Shown piece after piece: positions 1 to 23,626 of a stretch of DNA of 34,313 nucleotides. The translations under genes were made by a program, and so were the position numbers. Position 1 is the stretch's first letter, and each line of letters opens with the position of its first letter. Below the pieces are notes generated by a model, which had not been told where the DNA came from, did not search any database, and worked only from the letters and a program-made list of their open reading frames with translations. This DNA comes from Eledone cirrhosa (lineage: Eukaryota), in assembly GCA_964016885.1 (NCBI GenBank), contig CAXHJY010000839.1, positions 1 to 34,313 of the forward strand, given 5' to 3'.

Positions 1-248
<248 letters not shown>

Positions 249-251
<3 letters not shown>

Positions 252-1718
252 ATGAAATATAAGAATCAAAGAACTGTTCAAAACATTATTGTGCTTACAG
301 CTGTTTCCTCCAAACCGAGGTTTGGATTCTTCGGAGCAATTTATTAATGCATGGACAGTTATATGACCTCCTTTTCAGCCGAGAGACATACCAATACATA
401 TTCAAACATTGATACATATTCAAACATTGTGGGTCAACATTCATTACAGAATTTAGAGTGGCAGTACACACTTCGAGATTACATTTATATTAATAGGTAC
501 AATCAAAAATCAAAGATATAGGTTAAAGTACAACATGAAGATAAGTGGTTATATAGTGCAAATGTTATATGTGTGGCACGCATGTGCGTCTTGTTTATAT
601 AGTGTGGCAGAGAGATATGTGTGGTAGAGGCACTTAGGTAGGTAAATAAGAGTGTTAGGTTGGTAGATCTGGTGGCAAAGTCTTTATATGATTGATATAG
701 TCTGTGTGTGGAGAAATATTATAAGCATTAAAGATAGTGCAAGCATTAAAAGTGTTATAAGTATTGGAGATGCACAGCGCAGGGATGTCAAGTAATTCAT
801 GTACTTCGGTATTTTCATGGTCAAGGGAGTGTATATTTCGATTATATGCCTTTCACATAATCCAGGACAATCCAGTTAGAGATCGTAGTCTGGTGTTCTT
901 TAGTTCGATACAGGAGGGTGTTACGTTTCGAGAGACGCCATTGAATACCGGAAGTGTGTGTGTGGCTAAGGGGAGTTAATGCATGCGGGGAGGTAACTCT
1001 GGGGTTTCTATATCTAGCCATTAAAATGTGTCTCAATATAGACCCTAAATTCTATGGTGAGGTGCACCTTCCAAGAGAGACTTTTAAAGCATAAAGTGTA
1101 CTAACTATAGAGTAGTTTAACTAAATTATGCTGAAGGTGATCATATTATTATTAGGGTGGATTAACCCATCTTAAGGTGCTACAAATGGAAATTATAGAT
1201 GATGAGCGAGGATTCTAAATTAATGATCTCTATGGTTGTAGTCTGCTCATATGACCAGGCGCGGTGATTGCAGGATTGCTTCAGGACCCAATGATCTCTG
1301 GTAAGATCTGGGTCATCGCTTGCTACATTGGATGTCGAAAGATAATCATCCCCAGGCAGGCCAAAGGTCTATCCGCAGTCCTCGCGACCCCTCTCTGACC
1401 GTCAGATCATCCATATACGTACAACCCGCACGGCAGTTGCACTGCATTCACTCACTGCGTTCAGCAGCCTGGTCCTACTGGTCAACAGCGCTACTCGATT
1501 AAATCATTTTACATCTGTCTAAGGAAGGTGTTTCCTCTGCCCAACACCATCCAACCGATCAATTCATGCTCAAATTACCCTTAGAGCGGTGTAGTGCCGT
1601 CCAGGTGGGTGGATGTTGTCACACCTGCCGTAGAGGTATAAATGGGTATTTTCCTGCGAAGGGTTCCAGAGGGATGTCGTTGTTTGTGTTATAATGGATC
1701 AGCTAGTGTTGGGTATGT
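249..1718 (-). repeat. Inverted copy of the PLE 3' region (equivalent to 5652-7122)
   Basis: Reverse complement of 5652-7122 with one 1-bp indel near 1652 and one substitution. Mirrored small ORFs in the track (1320-1502+ vs 5869-6051-; 842-1036- vs 6335-6529+) confirm the mapping. Confidence 0.95.
292..339 (-). ncRNA. Minimal type I hammerhead ribozyme (inverted copy)
   Basis: Reverse complement of 2833-2880. Confidence 0.78.
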
Positions 1719-3087
1719 GAGTGAATGCAGTGCAACTGCCGTGCGGGTTGTACGTATATGGATGATCTGACGGTCAGAGAGGGGTCGCGAGGACTGCGGA
1801 TAGACCTTTGGCCTGCCTGGGGATGATTATCTTTCGACATCCAATGTAGCAAGCGATGACCCAGATCTTACCAGAGATCATTGGGTCCTGAAGCAATCCT
1901 GCAATCACCGCGCCTGGTCATATGAGCAGACTACAACCATAGAGATCATTAATTTAGAATCCTCGCTCATCATCTATAATTTCCATTTGTAGCACCTTAA
2001 GATGGGTTAATCCACCCTAATAATAATATGATCACCTTCAGCATAATTTAGTTAAACTACTCTATAGTTAGTACACTTTATGCTTTAAAAGTCTCTCTTG
2101 GAAGGTGCACCTCACCATAGAATTTAGGGTCTATATTGAGACACATTTTAATGGCTAGATATAGAAACCCCAGAGTTACCTCCCCGCGTGCATTAACTCC
2201 CCTTAGCCACACACACACTTCCGGTATTCAATGGCGTCTCTCGAAACGTAACACCCTCCTGTATCGAACTAAAGAACACCAGACTACGATCTCTAACTGG
2301 ATTGTCCTGGATTATGTGAAAGGCATATAATCGAAATATACACTCCCTTGACCATGAAAATACCGAAGTACATGAATTACTTGACATCCCTGCGCTGTGC
2401 ATCTCCAATACTTATAACACTTTTAATGCTTGCACTATCTTTAATGCTTATAATATTTCTCCACACACAGACTATATCAATCATATAAAGACTTTGCCAC
2501 CAGATCTACCAACCTAACACTCTTATTTACCTACCTAAGTGCCTCTACCACACATATCTCTCTGCCACACTATATAAACAAGACGCACATGCGTGCCACA
2601 CATATAACATTTGCACTATATAACCACTTATCTTCATGTTGTACTTTAACCTATATCTTTGATTTTTGATTGTACCTATTAATATAAATGTAATCTCGAA
2701 GTGTGTACTGCCACTCTAAATTCTGTAATGAATGTTGACCCACAATGTTTGAATATGTATCAATGTTTGAATATGTATTGGTATGTCTCTCGGCTGAAAA
2801 GGAGGTCATATAACTGTCCATGCATTAATAAATTGCTCCGAAGAATCCAAACCTCGGTTTGGAGGAAACAGCTGTAAGCACAATAATGTTTTGAACAGTT
2901 CTTTGATTCTTATATTTCATATAACTGCTCTGTAAATCATCTGATGTTTTTACATTGAGCTACTTAACTTACTGGTAATAAGGTAGTAATACATTACTGC
3001 CTACCACTATTTAGGGTGTGTGTAAAATACTTACAACTGCTTAAGGTTTTGTGTTTACATAACCATAAGTAGTATAACTAATACTAT
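1717..3087 (+). repeat. 5' pseudo-LTR (5'-truncated upstream tandem copy of the element's 3' end)
   Basis: Matches 5916-7286 at offset 4199; by eye I see two substitutions (near 2188 and 2223), which agree with the paired 64-aa ORF translations. Confidence 0.95.
2833..2880 (+). ncRNA. Minimal type I hammerhead ribozyme (5' pLTR copy)
   Basis: TGCT - CCGAAGA (variant of CUGANGA) - A - TCCAAAC/CTCG/GTTTGGA stem II - G - GAAA - C AGCT G - TA - AGCA. Stem III lies in the palindrome ACAGCTGT. Predicted cleavage after 2876. Confidence 0.8.
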
Positions 3088-3129
3088 TAACTGCTCCATA
3101 TCGTTGAGCTGACATATAATATTGCCAAT

Positions 3130-5589
3130 ATGCTAATCAAAGACCAACTCCCCATGTCAACCAAGAACATACCAATACCATCCAGGAATACATATGAGAA
3201 ATTGCTGATCAACAGTGTAAATTCATTTATCAATAGAGTGAGATGGAGGACATTCCATTATGATAGAAACAAATCTAACAACTTGAATAATACTAACAAT
3301 TTTGACTCCTTCGGCTTTAAAACCTTTAAAAGCCCCCCTCATAACACTCTACTTAACTCCTTTGAAAATGACCTAGTTAAACTAGTTAAGAACATTAAAT
3401 ACAATAAGCACCATATTAGAAGCAACACCTTCTTAAACAAACTTAACACTTCTATTAGTGGATTCAAAACTAGTAATAAAATTATTGTACACGCAGATAA
3501 AACTAATAACATATACAGCCTAGATTATATTACTTATAGAAAGTTTATATATAATGAACTACATAAAAGCTACAAAAAAACCACCTTGAAAAACTTAGAA
3601 GATATTAATGTAGAGGGTTATAATATAGTGTCTAAACTAGGACTACAGAGGCATACACAACCTTTCACTCCGAACCCCCCTAGATTCTCTCTGAAGGACC
3701 ATAAGGAGAACTTCATCAGCAACCCCACGATAAGACTTATCTGCCCTTCCAAGTCCGACATTGGTATTATCAGCAAGAAGATTTTGGATAAAATCATCCC
3801 ACAAATTAAACACAAGATACACCTTAAACAATGGGGAAATACGGGTGAAGTAATTGAATGGTTTAAGGATATCAAGAATAATAAGAACAAAAAATTTATT
3901 CAATTTGATATCAATTCATACTACACCTCTATTTCCCCTATCCTATTAAATAAGGCACTTATCATGGCCATGACCAATAGCGACCTGACTAGAGCCCAGG
4001 TTGATGTCATCCTTGCGGCCCGTAAAACCATAATCACCTTCGAGGACCAACTATGGACACGCAAGGATACGCACAACAACTTCGACATAACCATGGGATC
4101 TAGTGACTCGGCGCAGGTCACTGATTTGGTCGGCCTATACCTCCTCAATGAAATCCATAAAGACCTCCCTTACCTCAACGGTGGTTTGTACCGCGATGAT
4201 GCACTTCTACTCATAGAATATAAAAAATTTAATATAGAAAGAACTAGAAAACAACTGCATAAGACATTCAAAAACTTTAACCTTAGTATCACCATGGACA
4301 AAAACACTAAAAATGTTAACTTCCTAGACGCCACACTATACCTAGACTCAAAAATATATACACCCTTCCATAAGCCTAATGAGAAACTTATTTACGTAGA
4401 TACCAAGTCTAATCACCCTAGATCAATATTAAACTCTATCTCTAAGGGGGTGTCCAATAGAATCTCTAGTCTGTCCTATGACGCAAACATATTTAGCAAA
4501 AACTCACAATATTACAATCAAGCATTAGCTAGCTCCGGCCATAATATAGAAATTGAGTTCCTACCTAAGAAAACACATAGCTACAACATCATCTCGCACA
4601 ACATGTCCATGAGGAAATCTAATAATAGGAATAGCAACCACAAGTACACCAAAGTGGAGGGTGCCACCGGAAGTAACCATTACCATGGAAACTACTGTGA
4701 GGCCTTAGGAGGAAGCAACACACCAAACACTAAAAGCAAAAATAGAAGAAGAAATAATACATTTTTCAACCCTCCTTTCAACCTAAATGTCTCCACCAAC
4801 ATACCTAGGGCTTTCTTCTCACTACTAGATAAAAACTTCCCTCTAGGACACAAGTACCACAACCTCTTAAACAAAAACACCATTAAAATCTCATACTCCA
4901 CGACGCCTAACTTAGCATACCACATAGCTAGCAGCAATAATAGTAAAATTAGTTCTTACTTCCAACAAACAAAATCGCAACGGGATGCAAACCCTCTAAA
5001 TACCACTGTAGCAAGCAACAATAGCAACGGCAGTAACAATAGAAATAACACTAGTATAAGTAATAACACCAGGGTTGTCAACCTGAACACCCAAAATCCT
5101 ATACCCACCACACAGACTTCCGCATTGCATTATAACCAGCGGACTAACGCACAGAATAATTGTAACTGTAGAACTAATAGAACCTGCCCTTTAGATAAAA
5201 AATGCCTAACCAAGGATGTCATATACTCATGCACAGTCACGACTAATAACTCTTCAGAAACCTATGTAGGCTCCACTTCTAACTGCTTCAAAATTAGATA
5301 TAACTCGCACATCCACTCGTTCAAAAAGCACAGCCTAGCCAACTCCACCTCACTTTCTAGCTACATTCACTATCTAAAATCTAAAAATAAACCATACACA
5401 CTCAAATGGGAAGTGATAGGCAGCGCGACCTCGTACAAACCACCTAATAAATTCTGTAACCTCTGTATACTAGAGACACACAATATTATCTTCTCCAACC
5501 GTAACCTACTTAACAAAAAATCTGAGGTGTTTGCAACTTGCCAGCACCGCCTCAGACATTCCTTCCAAAACTTTAAGCCCCATATATAG
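3130..5589 (+). CDS. PLE polyprotein: reverse transcriptase + Cys-rich linker + GIY-YIG endonuclease (819 aa)
   Basis: Uninterrupted ORF. RT motifs: IRLICP, FIQFDINSYYTSI (A), ITMGSSDSAQVTDLVG (B'), GLYRDDAL (C), NFLDATL (E). Thumb/linker FFNPPF...KISYS; CNCRTNRTC; GIY-YIG as VIY...YVG followed by FKIRYNSH, LETHNI and LLNK; terminal CNLC...CQH. Confidence 0.95.
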   Translation: MLIKDQLPMSTKNIPIPSRNTYEKLLINSVNSFINRVRWRTFHYDRNKSNNLNNTNNFDSFGFKTFKSPPHNTLLNSFENDLVKLVKNIKYNKHHIRSNTFLNKLNTSISGFKTSNKIIVHADKTNNIYSLDYITYRKFIYNELHKSYKKTTLKNLEDINVEGYNIVSKLGLQRHTQPFTPNPPRFSLKDHKENFISNPTIRLICPSKSDIGIISKKILDKIIPQIKHKIHLKQWGNTGEVIEWFKDIKNNKNKKFIQFDINSYYTSISPILLNKALIMAMTNSDLTRAQVDVILAARKTIITFEDQLWTRKDTHNNFDITMGSSDSAQVTDLVGLYLLNEIHKDLPYLNGGLYRDDALLLIEYKKFNIERTRKQLHKTFKNFNLSITMDKNTKNVNFLDATLYLDSKIYTPFHKPNEKLIYVDTKSNHPRSILNSISKGVSNRISSLSYDANIFSKNSQYYNQALASSGHNIEIEFLPKKTHSYNIISHNMSMRKSNNRNSNHKYTKVEGATGSNHYHGNYCEALGGSNTPNTKSKNRRRNNTFFNPPFNLNVSTNIPRAFFSLLDKNFPLGHKYHNLLNKNTIKISYSTTPNLAYHIASSNNSKISSYFQQTKSQRDANPLNTTVASNNSNGSNNRNNTSISNNTRVVNLNTQNPIPTTQTSALHYNQRTNAQNNCNCRTNRTCPLDKKCLTKDVIYSCTVTTNNSSETYVGSTSNCFKIRYNSHIHSFKKHSLANSTSLSSYIHYLKSKNKPYTLKWEVIGSATSYKPPNKFCNLCILETHNIIFSNRNLLNKKSEVFATCQHRLRHSFQNFKPHI

Positions 5590-5915
5590 CAATGTTGGAC
5601 TGGAACCTAACACCACATCTAGCATCAAACACCAGAGACACACCCTATACTACATACCCAACACTAGCTGATCCATTATAACACAAACAACGACATCCCT
5701 CTGGAACCCTTCGCAGGGAAAATACCCATTTATACCTCTACGGCAGGTGTGACAACATCCACCCACCTGGACGGCACTACACCGCTCTAAGGGTAATTTG
5801 AGCATGAATTGATCGGTTGGATGGTGTTGGGCAGAGGAAACACCTTCCTTAGACAGATGTAAAATGATTTAATCGAGTAGCGCTGTTGACCAGTAGGACC
5901 AGGCTGCTGAACGCA

Positions 5916-7286
5916 GTGAGTGAATGCAGTGCAACTGCCGTGCGGGTTGTACGTATATGGATGATCTGACGGTCAGAGAGGGGTCGCGAGGACTGCGGAT
6001 AGACCTTTGGCCTGCCTGGGGATGATTATCTTTCGACATCCAATGTAGCAAGCGATGACCCAGATCTTACCAGAGATCATTGGGTCCTGAAGCAATCCTG
6101 CAATCACCGCGCCTGGTCATATGAGCAGACTACAACCATAGAGATCATTAATTTAGAATCCTCGCTCATCATCTATAATTTCCATTTGTAGCACCTTAAG
6201 ATGGGTTAATCCACCCTAATAATAATATGATCACCTTCAGCATAATTTAGTTAAACTACTCTATAGTTAGTACACTTTATGCTTTAAAAGTCTCTCTTGG
6301 AAGGTGCACCTCACCATAGAATTTAGGGTCTATATTGAGACACATTTTAATGGCTAGATATAGAAACCCCAGAGTTACCTCCCCGCATGCATTAACTCCC
6401 CTTAGCCACACACACACTTCCCGTATTCAATGGCGTCTCTCGAAACGTAACACCCTCCTGTATCGAACTAAAGAACACCAGACTACGATCTCTAACTGGA
6501 TTGTCCTGGATTATGTGAAAGGCATATAATCGAAATATACACTCCCTTGACCATGAAAATACCGAAGTACATGAATTACTTGACATCCCTGCGCTGTGCA
6601 TCTCCAATACTTATAACACTTTTAATGCTTGCACTATCTTTAATGCTTATAATATTTCTCCACACACAGACTATATCAATCATATAAAGACTTTGCCACC
6701 AGATCTACCAACCTAACACTCTTATTTACCTACCTAAGTGCCTCTACCACACATATCTCTCTGCCACACTATATAAACAAGACGCACATGCGTGCCACAC
6801 ATATAACATTTGCACTATATAACCACTTATCTTCATGTTGTACTTTAACCTATATCTTTGATTTTTGATTGTACCTATTAATATAAATGTAATCTCGAAG
6901 TGTGTACTGCCACTCTAAATTCTGTAATGAATGTTGACCCACAATGTTTGAATATGTATCAATGTTTGAATATGTATTGGTATGTCTCTCGGCTGAAAAG
7001 GAGGTCATATAACTGTCCATGCATTAATAAATTGCTCCGAAGAATCCAAACCTCGGTTTGGAGGAAACAGCTGTAAGCACAATAATGTTTTGAACAGTTC
7101 TTTGATTCTTATATTTCATATAACTGCTCTGTAAATCATCTGATGTTTTTACATTGAGCTACTTAACTTACTGGTAATAAGGTAGTAATACATTACTGCC
7201 TACCACTATTTAGGGTGTGTGTAAAATACTTACAACTGCTTAAGGTTTTGTGTTTACATAACCATAAGTAGTATAACTAATACTAT
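5916..7286 (+). repeat. 3' pseudo-LTR
   Basis: Direct repeat of 1717-3087; runs directly into (TA)n at 7287. Confidence 0.95.
7032..7079 (+). ncRNA. Minimal type I hammerhead ribozyme (3' pLTR copy)
   Basis: Identical to 2833-2880; predicted cleavage after 7075. Confidence 0.8.
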
Positions 7287-7530
<244 letters not shown>

Positions 7531-7742
7531 CGTTTCTGAATTTGTTTAGCAAGATTCTTTATCTGAAATCGTGTGTTGAAACCGATATTGTTATACTTTG
7601 GGAGGGTCATGTTGCCAATAAGAAACACACGCACCAGTTGCTTTCACTTCAATTTATTATATATTTATAAATTTACAAATTTACAAACTTATAAATTTCT
7701 GGTTGGTTGGTTGGTTCCACAACCAGATAGTTGTTTATATAT

Positions 7743-7787
7743 AGTCATAGTCCTTTCGTCACACACTCTGTGACCTCTTCAGTGACT
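7743..7787 (-). ncRNA. Minimal type I hammerhead ribozyme (family 2, inverted arm)
   Basis: Reverse complement of 7984-8028. Confidence 0.72.
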
Positions 7788-7983
7788 GGGGATTCCTTTC
7801 TTTGTTTCTGTGCCTTTCCTTTCTTCTATCCTACGCCATTTTGTTTCTGAAAAAGTGGAGAATAACATGGTCAACAGTACAAAAAAAGGGGATTTATTTA
7901 CAGTCTAACAATTGTTTCACTGATAAACAAAATGGCGTAGGATAGAAGAAAGGAAAGGCACAGAAACAAAGAAAGGAATCCCC

Positions 7984-8028
7984 AGTCACTGAAGAGGTCA
8001 CAGAGTGTGTGACGAAAGGACTATGACT
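7984..8028 (+). ncRNA. Minimal type I hammerhead ribozyme (family 2)
   Basis: AGTCA - CTGAAGA - G - GTCACA/GAGTG/TGTGAC - GAAA - GGAC - TA - TGACT: perfect 5-bp stem I and 6-bp stem II. Confidence 0.75.
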
Positions 8029-8154
8029 ATATATAAACAACTATCTGGTTGTGGAACCAACCAACCAACCAGAAATTTATAAATATATAATAAATTGAAG
8101 TGAAAGCAACTGGTGCGTGTGTTTCTTATTGGCAACATGACCCTCCCAAAGTAT

Positions 8155-8200
<46 letters not shown>

Positions 8201-8794
8201 ATACTTGGGGAGGGTCATATTTGTGTAATATTGCCAGAATTAATAACAGAACACGCTCACTGTTTGGTTGGTTTTCGCTTTTCGCTTCTGTGTCTTTTAT
8301 ATCGGCAATCTAATTTATTCGGTCCTCAATGTTGCCATTGACTGACCGACGGTCAAAAATAATACAGATACAATATAGACACAAACACATATATATAGTT
8401 TATCAAAGTATAACAAGTATAACAATATTTGTTTCGACACACGATTTCATATAAAAAACCTCGCAAAACTAATTCATCGCCGTTATATATATATCATTTA
8501 TCTCACTAATTCTGAACTTACAACGTTCTGAGTAAACTCATTGAGCCAATATTGTAATTGATGGATAATTCTTTGTATGTATATATATATATGTTTATAT
8601 ATTTATATATAAAGGATAACAAAATATCGTTATAGGTAATCCAGTTAGAGGTTGTGAATACTTCTTATTATGGATAGTTTTAGCAGTATTCGGCAATTTT
8701 GAGACATCTTTATCAGTGAAACAATTGTTAGACTGTAAATAAATCCCCTTTTTTTGTACTGTTGACCATGTTATTCTCCACTTTTTCAATTTTA

Positions 8795-10396: not shown

Positions 10397-10505
10397 TATA
10401 TATATATATATATATGTAGAAGTTATATTTAATTTGTTGGGATACAACAAGCAAATATTTTTATAACTGATATAAAGCACTCAACAAATCTTTGGAGTAA
10501 AAATA

Positions 10506-10760
10506 CGATATATTAACAAATGGAAACTATATTTATTAAACCATATTTATTTCATTATACATATTTCAAGGACACCAAGTTAAATTATGGTGTGCTTTCA
10601 TCAGATAAAATATAATATAGATCAGCTTTATAAATAAATATTGACATACCCTTAAAGAATGCGACCATTTCTGTTGGGAACTCCCGGGAGCTTCCAACTT
10701 GGTGTCCTTGAAATATGTATAATGAAATAAATATGGTTTTATAAATATAGTTTCCATTTA

Positions 10761-10768
<8 letters not shown>
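10506..10768. mobile_element. Self-inverted short element with a hammerhead-like motif (family 3)
   Basis: Minus arm ~10506-10668 reads TTAT-CTGATGA-AAGCACACCA...TGGTGTCCTT-GAAA-TATGT-ATAA; plus arm 10696-10768 is a truncated reverse complement ending in (TA)n; homologous to 17601-17781 and 22821-23095. Confidence 0.7.
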
Positions 10769-17600: not shown

Positions 17601-17603
<3 letters not shown>

Positions 17604-17780
17604 AAAGATTTATTTAAAGTAATGGTTCTATTTTAAAAGGGTACGTCAAAGCTATTTGTAAAACTGTTATATATTGTATTTTGTCTGATGAAGGCATACC
17701 ATAATTTAATATGGTATCCCTGAAATATGTATAATGAAATAAATATGGTTTTATAAATATAGTTTCCATTTATTAATATC

Positions 17781-17781
<1 letters not shown>
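17601..17781 (+). mobile_element. Short element with a hammerhead-like motif (family 3), single arm, embedded in (TA)n
   Basis: TTGT-CTGATGA (17685-17691)-AGGCATACCA...TGGTATCCCT-GAAA (17722-17725)-TATGT-ATAA; pure (TA)n on both sides. Confidence 0.72.
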
Positions 17782-18329: not shown

Positions 18330-18650
18330 AAATCTGTTTTGATATATGCTGTTGAGTTGGTGTAAGTTTCTTTCAATAAGTTGATGTATTTTTTTGTTAA
18401 TTGAGGTCTTGTTTAAGAGTTGCCACAAGCTGGGTAATTGTCAAAAGCTTTTGTGAAATCAATGAAGGTGATGTGCACAGGCTGTTGAATTCTATTGATT
18501 TCTCAATGGTTTATTCAATAGCTAGGATCTACTCAATGGTGTCTCTTCCAGGTTGATAGGCGGCTTGTGTTTCAGGAAATGAGGCGTAAAGGTCTGACTT
18601 CACACGTGCTGCAATCACAACGAGGAGCGATTTTAGTGAGAAGTTATCAT
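18330..18650 (-). pseudogene. Decayed non-LTR (LINE, RTE/CR1-like) reverse transcriptase fragment
   Basis: My minus-strand translation gives PETQAAYQPGRDTIE*I...EKSIEFN, then after a frameshift PVHITFIDFTKAFD (FIDFTKAFD = 18466-18440), matching the LINE RT Q.GF..GR and D..KAFD motifs; stops and frameshifts present. Confidence 0.85.
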
Positions 18651-18679
18651 ACAAGGTGGATCCTCCAAACTTAACTCAC

Positions 18680-19290
18680 AAGAGAGTTTGGAAGAGGAAA
18701 ATAAACTGGTTTAATCCTCCGTTTAATCTAAATATCTCTGTGATCATAAACAAAAAATGTTTATCTCTAATTAAGCAGTACTTCCCAAACACATACAAAT
18801 CCCACAGGCAAGTTAATATATATGTTATTTATTCTTGCATAGACATCAACGCTTCAGGCATTGTACATTACAGCAGAAAAAAAACCATATATATGCAGGC
18901 GTTACAATAGACACATACTGAACGGGAAAATTCAATTTTCCTATGTAAGAAAATTCTACTTTCCCAATGTTGTTCTCTAAAATAAGGCTTATCTCCCTCC
19001 ATACTATATCAAGGAATGACACGAAACATGCAGCCAATTGGTTTAAAAGAATATTCAACCTGCATATACAATCTTTCTGGTCAAGGAACATGAAAGAGTA
19101 TCTCTCCCTGTCATCTAATAACTTGGAAACCAGGACAATGGACTGCTTGGGAAAACCTGGAATATTGTCAGCAGATATCTCCTCTCTACGTATCCTTCTC
19201 TTGAGAGATAAAATACCACGTGGGCAATCATGTAAAAACATATCACTCTATTGTATATAAGAGCATAGAGAAACTCTATTCAAATATATC
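18680..19290 (+). pseudogene. Decayed second PLE (linker + GIY-YIG region) related to the intact element
   Basis: KRKINWFNPPFNLNIS...CLSLIKQYFP...VIYSC aligns with RRNNTFFNPPFNLNVS...FFSLLDKNFP...KISYS; ANWFKRIFNLHIQSF...SLSS aligns with SNCFKIRYNSHIHSF...SLSS; frameshifted. Confidence 0.85.
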
Positions 19291-21051: not shown

Positions 21052-21141
21052 ATAGGAACGAGTAGGACCCCGACGGCTGAACTCAAGCCGTTTCGACGGC
21101 TAATTCTGGAGCTCAGCCGTCGGGGTCCTACTCGTTCCTAT
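21052..21141. repeat. GC-rich foldback (29-bp perfect arms) with inner UUCG hairpin
   Basis: 21052-21080 is the reverse complement of 21113-21141; inner AGCCGT-TTCG-ACGGCT at 21086-21101; half copy at 14667-14729. Confidence 0.9.
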
Positions 21142-21246
21142 TACCCACTCTACTACTCTAAGTATTGAGTACTTTGGTGCGTTATGGTCCATCTGGTTCC
21201 TTACCACATTTCCTTCGTTATATATACATATATATATATTCTGTCT

Positions 21247-22550: not shown

Positions 22551-22618
<68 letters not shown>

Positions 22619-22786
22619 GTGAAGATCCGCATAAGGTGAAACAATTGTTCTCGGTATGGTGAACTAACTGTTGTGCTACTACTTATATATATAGTTATGT
22701 AATAAACAACATAAGATAATTATTTCATTAAAAGCTCTGTCACCTACATAGAGCACTCTCTTTTCCTTTACCTTTCCTACGGAAAT

Positions 22787-22820
<34 letters not shown>

Positions 22821-22821
<1 letters not shown>

Positions 22822-23095
22822 GATATTAAATAAATGGAAACTATATTTATAAAACCATATTTATTTCATTATACATATTTCAGGGATACCAAATTAAAAT
22901 ATGGTCTGCCTTCATCAGACAAAATACAATATATAAACAGTTTTATAGATAATTTTGACGTACCCTATTAAATGCAACCATTATCTATAAAACTGTTTAT
23001 ATATTGTATTTTGTCTGATGAAGGCATACCATATTTTAATTTGGTATCCCTGAAATATGTATAATGAAATAAATATGGTTTTATAAATATAGTTT
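22821..23095. mobile_element. Self-inverted short element with two hammerhead-like motifs (family 3)
   Basis: Arms 22838-22953 and 22980-23095 are near-perfect reverse complements; CTGATGA at 23015-23021 (+) and 22918-22912 (-); flanked by (TA)n and (CA)n. Confidence 0.75.
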
Positions 23096-23323: not shown

Positions 23324-23362
<39 letters not shown>

Positions 23363-23626
23363 ATAATGGCTTCTACAGGACTAGAACTGTTTCATTCGAG
23401 AGAAATCATCAGTACCTTACTTACTGTGGTTACCACCGACTTAACCCTGGATATACCTATATATATATATATATAAATACTTGTCTAATACTAGAGTTGA
23501 TTCTTCCTCTATATCTCTTTCTCATTGCCTCTCTATCACTCTCTCTCTATATATATATTTTTTTTTTGGGGGGGGGGGAGTTCAAGCCCGGAGAGAAGAG
23601 GGGCTTGCCATGTGCTAAATAAATGC

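Follow-up and report, generated by a model that had tools for sequence, protein, structure and literature searches.

A recent Hydra-type Penelope-like element of Eledone cirrhosa with composite ends lying next to paired hairpin motifs

The 34,313-nucleotide (nt) contig CAXHJY010000839.1 of Eledone cirrhosa (assembly GCA_964016885.1), analysed over its whole length and called the window here, carries a Penelope-like element (PLE) whose single open reading frame (ORF; 3130-5589, forward strand) encodes 819 amino acids with neither a stop nor a frameshift. The ORF lies within a composite insertion at 249-7283, which consists of an inverted arm, a direct copy described as a pseudo-long terminal repeat (pLTR), a unit of 4,199 nt (2924-7122) and a tail of 161-164 nt, and which is bordered by a left (TA)n array (1-253) and a right one (7284-7528). 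The element is larger than a preliminary description of the locus had it, in which the inverted and tandem layout, a variant hammerhead motif and the twin hairpins at the termini went unmentioned. Four comparison runs (X1, X2, X5 and X7, coded names for four species labels, between which kinship and transfer are indistinguishable) contain contigs that match the element at 90-99% identity or better. Runs X8-X18, which held small shares, were set aside as evidence, and so were the restriction-site raw reads of X19, whose pile-ups at 2834, 2995 and 3130 were attributed to cut sites of the library.

The inverted arm (249-1718, reverse strand, 1,470 nt) is a 5'-truncated copy of 5652-7122 that stops 3 nt before the position of hairpin 1 and differs from the unit by one substitution and one one-base gap. 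It meets the pLTR (1717-2923, forward strand), a 5'-truncated copy of 5916-7122, head to head over a microhomology of 2 nt (1717-1718), and the direct copy and the unit show two differences over 1,371 nt, with the tail counted. The 3' untranslated region (UTR; 5590-7122, forward strand, 1,533 nt) ends at terminus 1 and is contiguous with the ORF in contigs of X1, X5 and X7 as well; it has no match in phages or in the related loci and holds no ATG-started ORF of 100 amino acids. The one-sided tail (7123-7286, forward strand) is a copy of 2924-3087 that includes hairpin 1 (7126-7159) and stops 5 nt short of the position of hairpin 2. At the left end, a 9-nt repeat of the terminal bases of the element (240-248, reverse strand) likely records slippage or re-priming at initiation, and a loose end resembling it is found at 2922 in one X2 contig, which may derive from the same locus. 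The three repeated copies carry one private difference each, three in all, and the insertion is therefore very recent; a target-site duplication is unreadable in (TA)n.

A search for relatives of the 819-residue protein returned 304 proteins at E <= 0.001, of which the 120 listed share 31-44% identity with it and are nearly all unnamed, and residue conservation was scored on an alignment of 100 rows (the window protein and 99 relatives). The reverse transcriptase (RT) domain's aspartates (D260, D356 and D357) and the nuclease residues Y699, Y712, G714, R723 and E782 are identical in all 100 rows, N795 is kept in 99 of them, and the window protein has every catalytic residue. The cysteine-rich linker CNCRTNRTCPLDKKC occupies residues 678-692 (5161-5205, forward strand; located by motif search and alignment), followed by the GIY-YIG nuclease domain at residues 695-806 (5212-5547, forward strand; assigned by predicted fold and structure match), with CNLC at 776-779 and CQH at 804-806. 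The protein is longer than its relatives (median 710 amino acids) because of two low-complexity insertions at residues 483-531 and 615-668, which are predicted to be disordered.

Structure comparison was more informative than domain databases. Pfam gave no RT match in the window protein and a sub-threshold GIY-YIG match (E 0.019) that covers the C-terminal piece only, and a sequence search of the PDB gave no match. For the predicted full-length model (mean predicted local distance difference test score, pLDDT, 86.6), the four best Foldseek matches are all telomerase RTs (E 1.5e-8 to 4.4e-8). Residues 670-819 folded alone (pLDDT 93.6) match the GIY-YIG domain of I-TevI (Z 9.2, root-mean-square deviation 2.4, 89 residues aligned), followed by T4 EndoII and UvrC, and the ESM Atlas neighbours of the protein are unnamed PLE-type clusters. 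The element is probably autonomous, a potential activity suggested by its intactness and youth.

The Hydra clade of PLEs is described as having RWK, DKT, a divergent RT4 region, a CxCx5C linker, and CxxC and CxH in the nuclease with CCHH absent, together with canonical hammerheads, (TA)n insertion and a length mostly below 3 kb (PMC8557442). The window element has the corresponding single ORF, with a C-terminal GIY-YIG domain behind the RT and no N-terminal nuclease. At its N-terminus RWR (38-40) and GFKT (62-65) are found, so that the RWK motif is present and GxKF/Y is not conserved, as in Hydra; RW[KR] occurs in 108 of the 120 listed homologues. DKT is found at residue 123 (DK[TS] in 118/120, [AP]DKG in 0/120), a thumb region follows the RT core, and CxCx5C lies at 678-686 (107/120). 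C776/C779 and C804/H806 flank the catalytic E and N, CCHH is absent, and between VIY and YVG there is a lone, unconserved cysteine. The RT4/RT5 and nuclease rows of Hydra in Fig. S7 of that paper are close to the window protein when compared by eye, for instance in the RT4 and YRDD regions. None of the marks of Neptune, Nematis or Penelope-Poseidon (a CCHH nuclease, DKG, or the Cx2-5CxxC linker of Neptune and Nematis) is seen in the window protein; canonical PLEs reach just 20-45 bits on the profile of its family, and its C-terminal nuclease sets it apart from Naiad/Chlamys with their N-terminal GIY-YIG.

The same placement was obtained from quick IQ-TREE trees of the RT core, built without bootstrap and without published references, Nematis, Naiad or Athena, in which canonical PLEs from bacterial assemblies, typed by motif as Poseidon (two rows) or Neptune/Coprina (seven rows), served as outgroups. 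Hydra-type rows, the window protein among them, are split from the canonical rows with an SH-aLRT support of 100 (32 versus 9 rows, and 40 versus 8 rows in a second tree). The subgroup of the window protein (support 99-100) comprises P0001, P0002, P0003, P0005, P0218 and P0038, the last being a record from Argonauta hians; together with the microsatellite-rich DNA, this points to a probable octopod host. Short motifs taken from the published references identified no reference among the homologues collected here, and P0098 is another protein. On these grounds the element almost certainly belongs to the Hydra clade. The preliminary description is borne out in its account of the protein, that is, an uninterrupted ORF with the RT aspartates and the GIY-YIG Y/R/E/N residues, invariant or nearly so across the alignment, a cysteine motif before the nuclease and CNLC...CQH at its end; the Hydra hallmarks that it had named, CxCx5C and a (TA)n bias, agree with PMC8557442, and the RT phylogeny that it proposed as a check sets the element apart from Poseidon- and Neptune-type RTs, in trees without Nematis, Naiad or published Hydra rows.

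Several minor observations concern the distribution and annotation of these proteins. P0038, a Hydra-type RT, is labelled at its source as 'GATA zinc finger domain-containing protein 14-like', which is misleading. Neither Hydra relatives nor canonical PLE motifs were found in viral contigs, and a weak search found no fused form longer than 1,434 amino acids. Animal-type Neptune, endonuclease-less and Poseidon PLEs (loci L079-L162 and G001-G007) occur in assemblies filed as bacterial, most likely as host contamination.

A type I hammerhead motif is repeated three times in the insertion: at 292-338 (reverse strand) in the inverted arm, at 2834-2880 (forward strand; predicted cut after 2876) and at 7033-7079 (forward strand; predicted cut after 7075). 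It has a 7-bp stem II and a self-complementary helix III, which could form an 8-bp duplex (-11.1 kcal/mol) of the palindromic kind expected of dimer-type PLE ribozymes (PMC4209133). In each of the three copies it lies 47 nt 5' of terminus 1, in line with the 3'-end hammerhead of Hydra elements. Its core reads CCGAAGA in all three, with C in place of U at position 4 (U4C), and departs from the canonical CUGANGA; the contigs of X1 and X7 span the core without a difference, so the C is a trait of the family. U4C is a natural viroid variant with an activity described as much reduced yet sufficient (PMC3088659). Among 69 related loci with a mapped nuclease end, 36 have a downstream hammerhead, and CUGA was found in 36 of 36 in a scan that allowed any base. 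The distance from stop codon to hammerhead is 48-516 nt (median 120) in these 36 relatives, against 1,448 nt in the window element, a range in which long UTRs may be under-counted since the other 33 loci often end early. Rfam gave nothing in the window at 200-7400 and one unrelated weak match across nine loci. At 5701-5803, 110-200 nt past the stop codon where the relatives carry theirs, there is a hammerhead-like hairpin with a third GCTC..GAGC; its interpretation as a vestigial hammerhead and hairpin of an ancestral 3' end fits the position and was set aside, as the models R1 and R2 give no match there at E 5.

The twin hairpins were recognised through the relatives, in which a GCUC stem, loop, bulge and GAGCAC follow 3' of the hammerhead, mostly as paired copies. 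Among 78 related loci taken from metagenome assemblies, 52 carry the strict motif in sense orientation, compared with 5 on the antisense strand and 0-5 in 20 shuffles; two of the 52 are chance matches inside ORFs and were excluded from later counts. Of 75 distinct sequences, 74 retain the base pair that spans the 2-nt bulge (C-G in 48, U-A in 26), against 0-24 of 69-75 that are paired in the other 3'-bulge registers, and the next pairs are kept in 53/69 and 35/47 with several pair types. Two-sided changes number 86 versus 36.6 +/- 4.6 in shuffles (alignment of 74 rows; the shuffle ignores kinship), and slid registers pair in 21-56% as against 91% for the true register. The hairpin model found no match in five assemblies rich in canonical PLEs, with 150 candidates scored in each.

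In the window, hairpin 1 (2927-2960, forward strand) has a GCUC/GAGC stem, a 2-nt 3' bulge and an extended inner stem and lies 3 nt behind terminus 1 (2923); hairpin 2 (3093-3109, forward strand) lies 5 nt behind terminus 2 (3087), 20 nt upstream of the start codon and 46 nt before the conserved STKNIP codons, a distance within the main cluster of 42 relatives. Each arm stops at UA-rich template bases, the left one 3 nt short of hairpin 1 and the right one 5 nt short of hairpin 2. The relatives behave similarly: of 11 mappable termini, eight stop 2-4 nt and three stop 8-12 nt before a hairpin, judged by the first mismatch. Tail length follows hairpin spacing, with about 61 nt in the family of L019, L016 and L055 and 161-164 nt in the window element, whose spacing of 166 nt lies well outside the 55-83 nt of 28 relative pairs. 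The hammerhead and hairpin 1 together score E 6e-7 with the model, which also picks up ACUC/GAGU forms in the window. Between the hairpins, a GT..AG stretch of 94-97 nt (2975-3068/3071) would on removal leave a spacing of 69-72 nt, as in the relatives, and may be a 5' UTR intron that has been retained, a feature known from other PLEs.

The preliminary description had placed (TA)n on both flanks and proposed a bias to (TA)n in other copies. The first claim stands for the insertion, since the arrays directly abut the ends of the 7-kb composite, and not for the ORF, from which they lie 2.9 kb and 1.7 kb away. Outside the element TA makes up 12% (perfect arrays) to 15% (near-perfect arrays) of the window; given this share, and as both flanks come from one event, the odds against chance that this window offers by itself are no better than about 1 in 7. 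The second claim holds within the family, where at least 12 X2 contigs and at least one X7 contig run from 2923 into TA as loose ends, and contigs of X1 and X5 end at 3087. Across the clade only four of the 11 mapped termini (L002, L012, L019 and L073) enter (TA)n; the sample likely under-represents TA, since contigs assembled from short reads are prone to end at such arrays. On the present loci the target preference of the clade is better named AT-rich or TA-leaning.

The reading favoured here, graded as likely and put at roughly 60%, is that of a very young, intact Hydra PLE. Its RT-nuclease likely cuts a TA repeat on each strand and likely begins to copy the RNA of the element internally, just 5' of either hairpin, one hairpin for each cut end. 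Nuclease and RT activity and the role of the hairpins are predicted here from sequence. The proposal would account for the anatomy, the ends and the conservation seen directly in the following way. The nuclease would nick both strands of AT-rich DNA, and reverse transcription would be primed from each of the 3'-OH ends, as GIY-YIG biochemistry and the Poseidon element in vitro suggest (PMC11167929). The protein would bind a hairpin and position the TA primer at the UA bases immediately upstream of it, which would make the tail as long as the hairpin spacing; the TA preference may then stem partly from the nuclease and partly from pairing of primer and template. The long arm started at hairpin 2 would run for 1.33 units over two hammerhead cut sites, on either a cut-and-ligated circle or an uncut multimer, and the two cDNAs could join through the microhomology at 1717-1718. 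The window copy is without hairpin 2 at its own 3' end, and a single-pass linear cycle would drop one 3' hairpin per generation, so a circle, a longer-tandem multimer or a template jump would be needed. For the template of the long arm, a circle is rated a little short of an even chance, a multimer somewhat lower and a template jump as unlikely; the circle is rated alongside the multimer because retrozyme circles are a precedent (PMC7229834), yet Poseidon used mainly uncut RNA and U4C should be slow.

A number of results weigh against this reading. U4C reportedly lowers cleavage (PMC3088659), and initiation by Poseidon proceeded without homology to the cut DNA and did not need hammerhead cleavage (PMC11167929), both of which weaken the circle step. 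The protein differs from its relatives at 22 columns that are kept in at least 90 of the 99, none of them catalytic. Of the relatives' 11 termini, one enters (TTTA)n and six enter other AT-rich DNA against the four in (TA)n, and a terminus-like break of L022 lies at no clear hairpin. As to the hairpins, the search itself was built on the outer GCUC/GAGC stem, which is thus no evidence of covariation, and counts of G-U against A-C cannot separate the RNA from the opposite strand. Those of the window are divergent, without the usual GAGCAC end, and score alone E 3.2 (hairpin 1) and E 2.6 (hairpin 2), the latter folding no better than shuffles (z -0.04); given this divergence and weakness, their identity rests on position.

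A more far-reaching version can be offered as a tentative proposal, in which Hydra elements would copy from a hammerhead-made circular RNA of 4.2 kb. The hairpins would act like the template-boundary signals of telomerase, each docking the RT and one serving each target strand, the nicked (TA)n end would pair with the UA just upstream, and rolling past the ligation point would generate the pLTR. If this were true, one RNA code would account for pLTRs, one-sided tails, inverted arms and microsatellite targeting, and would be shared in trans with non-coding stumps.

The hairpins might instead act in DNA: the nuclease would recognise them in either the cDNA or the donor strand and would resolve the intermediate by a cut just upstream, so that the ends would be fixed after copying. 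The PLE tail was ascribed earlier to nuclease-mediated resolution (PMC8557442), recognition by the D. virilis nuclease depended on the tail DNA (according to PMC11167929), and wobble pairs do not favour an RNA over a DNA hairpin. This explanation is nevertheless rated unlikely, as the junction of element and target lies exactly where priming must happen, the 9-nt reiteration at the left end resembles an initiation event, and the tail ends of Poseidon were RT start sites in vitro (PMC11167929). Slightly more doubtful is the view that the hairpins fix transcript ends, as a terminator or a nuclease signal, and that the RT primes at RNA 3' ends in the manner of long interspersed nuclear elements; it would equally yield two fixed termini separated by the hairpin spacing, but the hairpins lie 3' of the ends and would be removed, hairpin 2 is so close to the start codon, and internal initiation is documented in a related clade (PMC11167929). 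Least probable is a young but non-autonomous Hydra-type copy moved in trans by a related family, with TA flanks that merely mirror a TA-rich genome: the U4C ribozyme, the divergent hairpins, the 22 departures, the two long insertions, the TA share of the window and the many hairpin-bearing non-coding stumps nearby would suit it, but the catalytic and Cys/His residues are all kept, several of the departures are common to the nearest relatives P0001-P0003, 10 of the 18 ORF differences listed against other copies are silent versus 29% expected (best-supported 40 of 147 rows), and at least 13 contigs, drawn from two runs, pass into TA at the same position.

Returning to the internally primed Hydra element favoured above, its closest counterparts are the described Hydra-clade elements (Craig et al., 2021, PMC8557442), such as Hydra-1_Obim and Hydra-1_Ajap, with which it shares the single RT-endonuclease ORF, the protein motifs, the 3' hammerhead and the (TA)n target. 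It differs in a unit of 4.2 kb against 1.1-3.0 kb in 27 published Hydra families, in its 3' UTR of 1.5 kb, in the U4C core against CUGA in all Hydra motifs listed there, and in a tail of 161-164 nt against 30-40 nt in described PLEs, the layout being otherwise the known PLE one. The twin hairpins go unmentioned in the searched main and supplementary text of that paper and were not found in the rest of the literature searched, which included the text of PMC7229834, PMC4209133 and bioRxiv 10.64898/2026.07.22.740005, with subscription papers and further supplements outside its coverage.

The Poseidon element of Anolis carolinensis (PAc; Frangieh et al., 2024, PMC11167929) is the nearest functional parallel, in that both AT-rich strands are cut and extended, two internal RT start sites set the tail in vitro and an RNA stem-loop is involved. 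[quoted passage not shown] Metazoan non-LTR retrozymes and PLE hammerheads (PMC7229834, PMC4209133, bioRxiv 10.64898/2026.07.22.740005) are likewise of type I with a palindromic helix III and an expected dimer. Retrozyme circles closed by an RtcB-type ligase are the precedent for a circular template; retrozymes are non-coding units of 170-400 nt as compared with a coding unit of 4.2 kb here, for which a circle is only proposed. By its sequence, then, the element is Hydra in each protein feature and would work like an internally primed PLE of Poseidon type, and it departs from two descriptors at the RNA level, the canonical core and a length below 3 kb.

PMC8557442 poses as open questions how PLEs come by their tandem and inverted ends and why they prefer microsatellites; just one full-length PLE protein was found to have been studied in vitro, and it is from another clade (PMC11167929). 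In this locus an intact Hydra enzyme comes together with its own RNA signals and with the two ends of a single fresh insertion, and the 166-nt spacing of its hairpins is a natural test case, being an outlier that the tail follows. A profile search gave 5,460 clusters (50% identity) at E 1e-30, fragments counted, against the 27 published families (PMC8557442), so that the clade looks far larger than published, and Pfam misses most of its members.

Other repeats of the window lie beside or between TA arrays. A palindromic insertion of another family at 7585-8162, with pieces at 8415-8501 and 8709-8788, stands beside a TA run and has two outward-facing hammerheads with a canonical core (7989, forward strand; 7782, reverse strand). 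A decayed second Hydra-type ORF fragment (18545-18890; thumb and WFNPPF) is found between TA arrays, with 30-41% identity to relatives and interrupted by stops. Between TA runs, a short palindrome (21057-21219), in which no hammerhead was seen, precedes an ACUC/GAGU hairpin (E 2e-4); as in the main element, the inverted arm of the palindrome stops some 5 nt short of that hairpin. In a non-coding stump at 22612-22790, a degenerate hammerhead is accompanied by a hairpin of textbook form at 22734 (E 2.5e-6), and the stump ends in (TA)15 about 35 nt later. Small hammerhead-bearing repeats also occur between TA arrays at 10416-10763 (reverse strand), with kindred pieces at 17601-17781 and 22821-23095, and at 23330-23419 (reverse strand), one of them with an ACUC/GAGU hairpin at 10473-10506.

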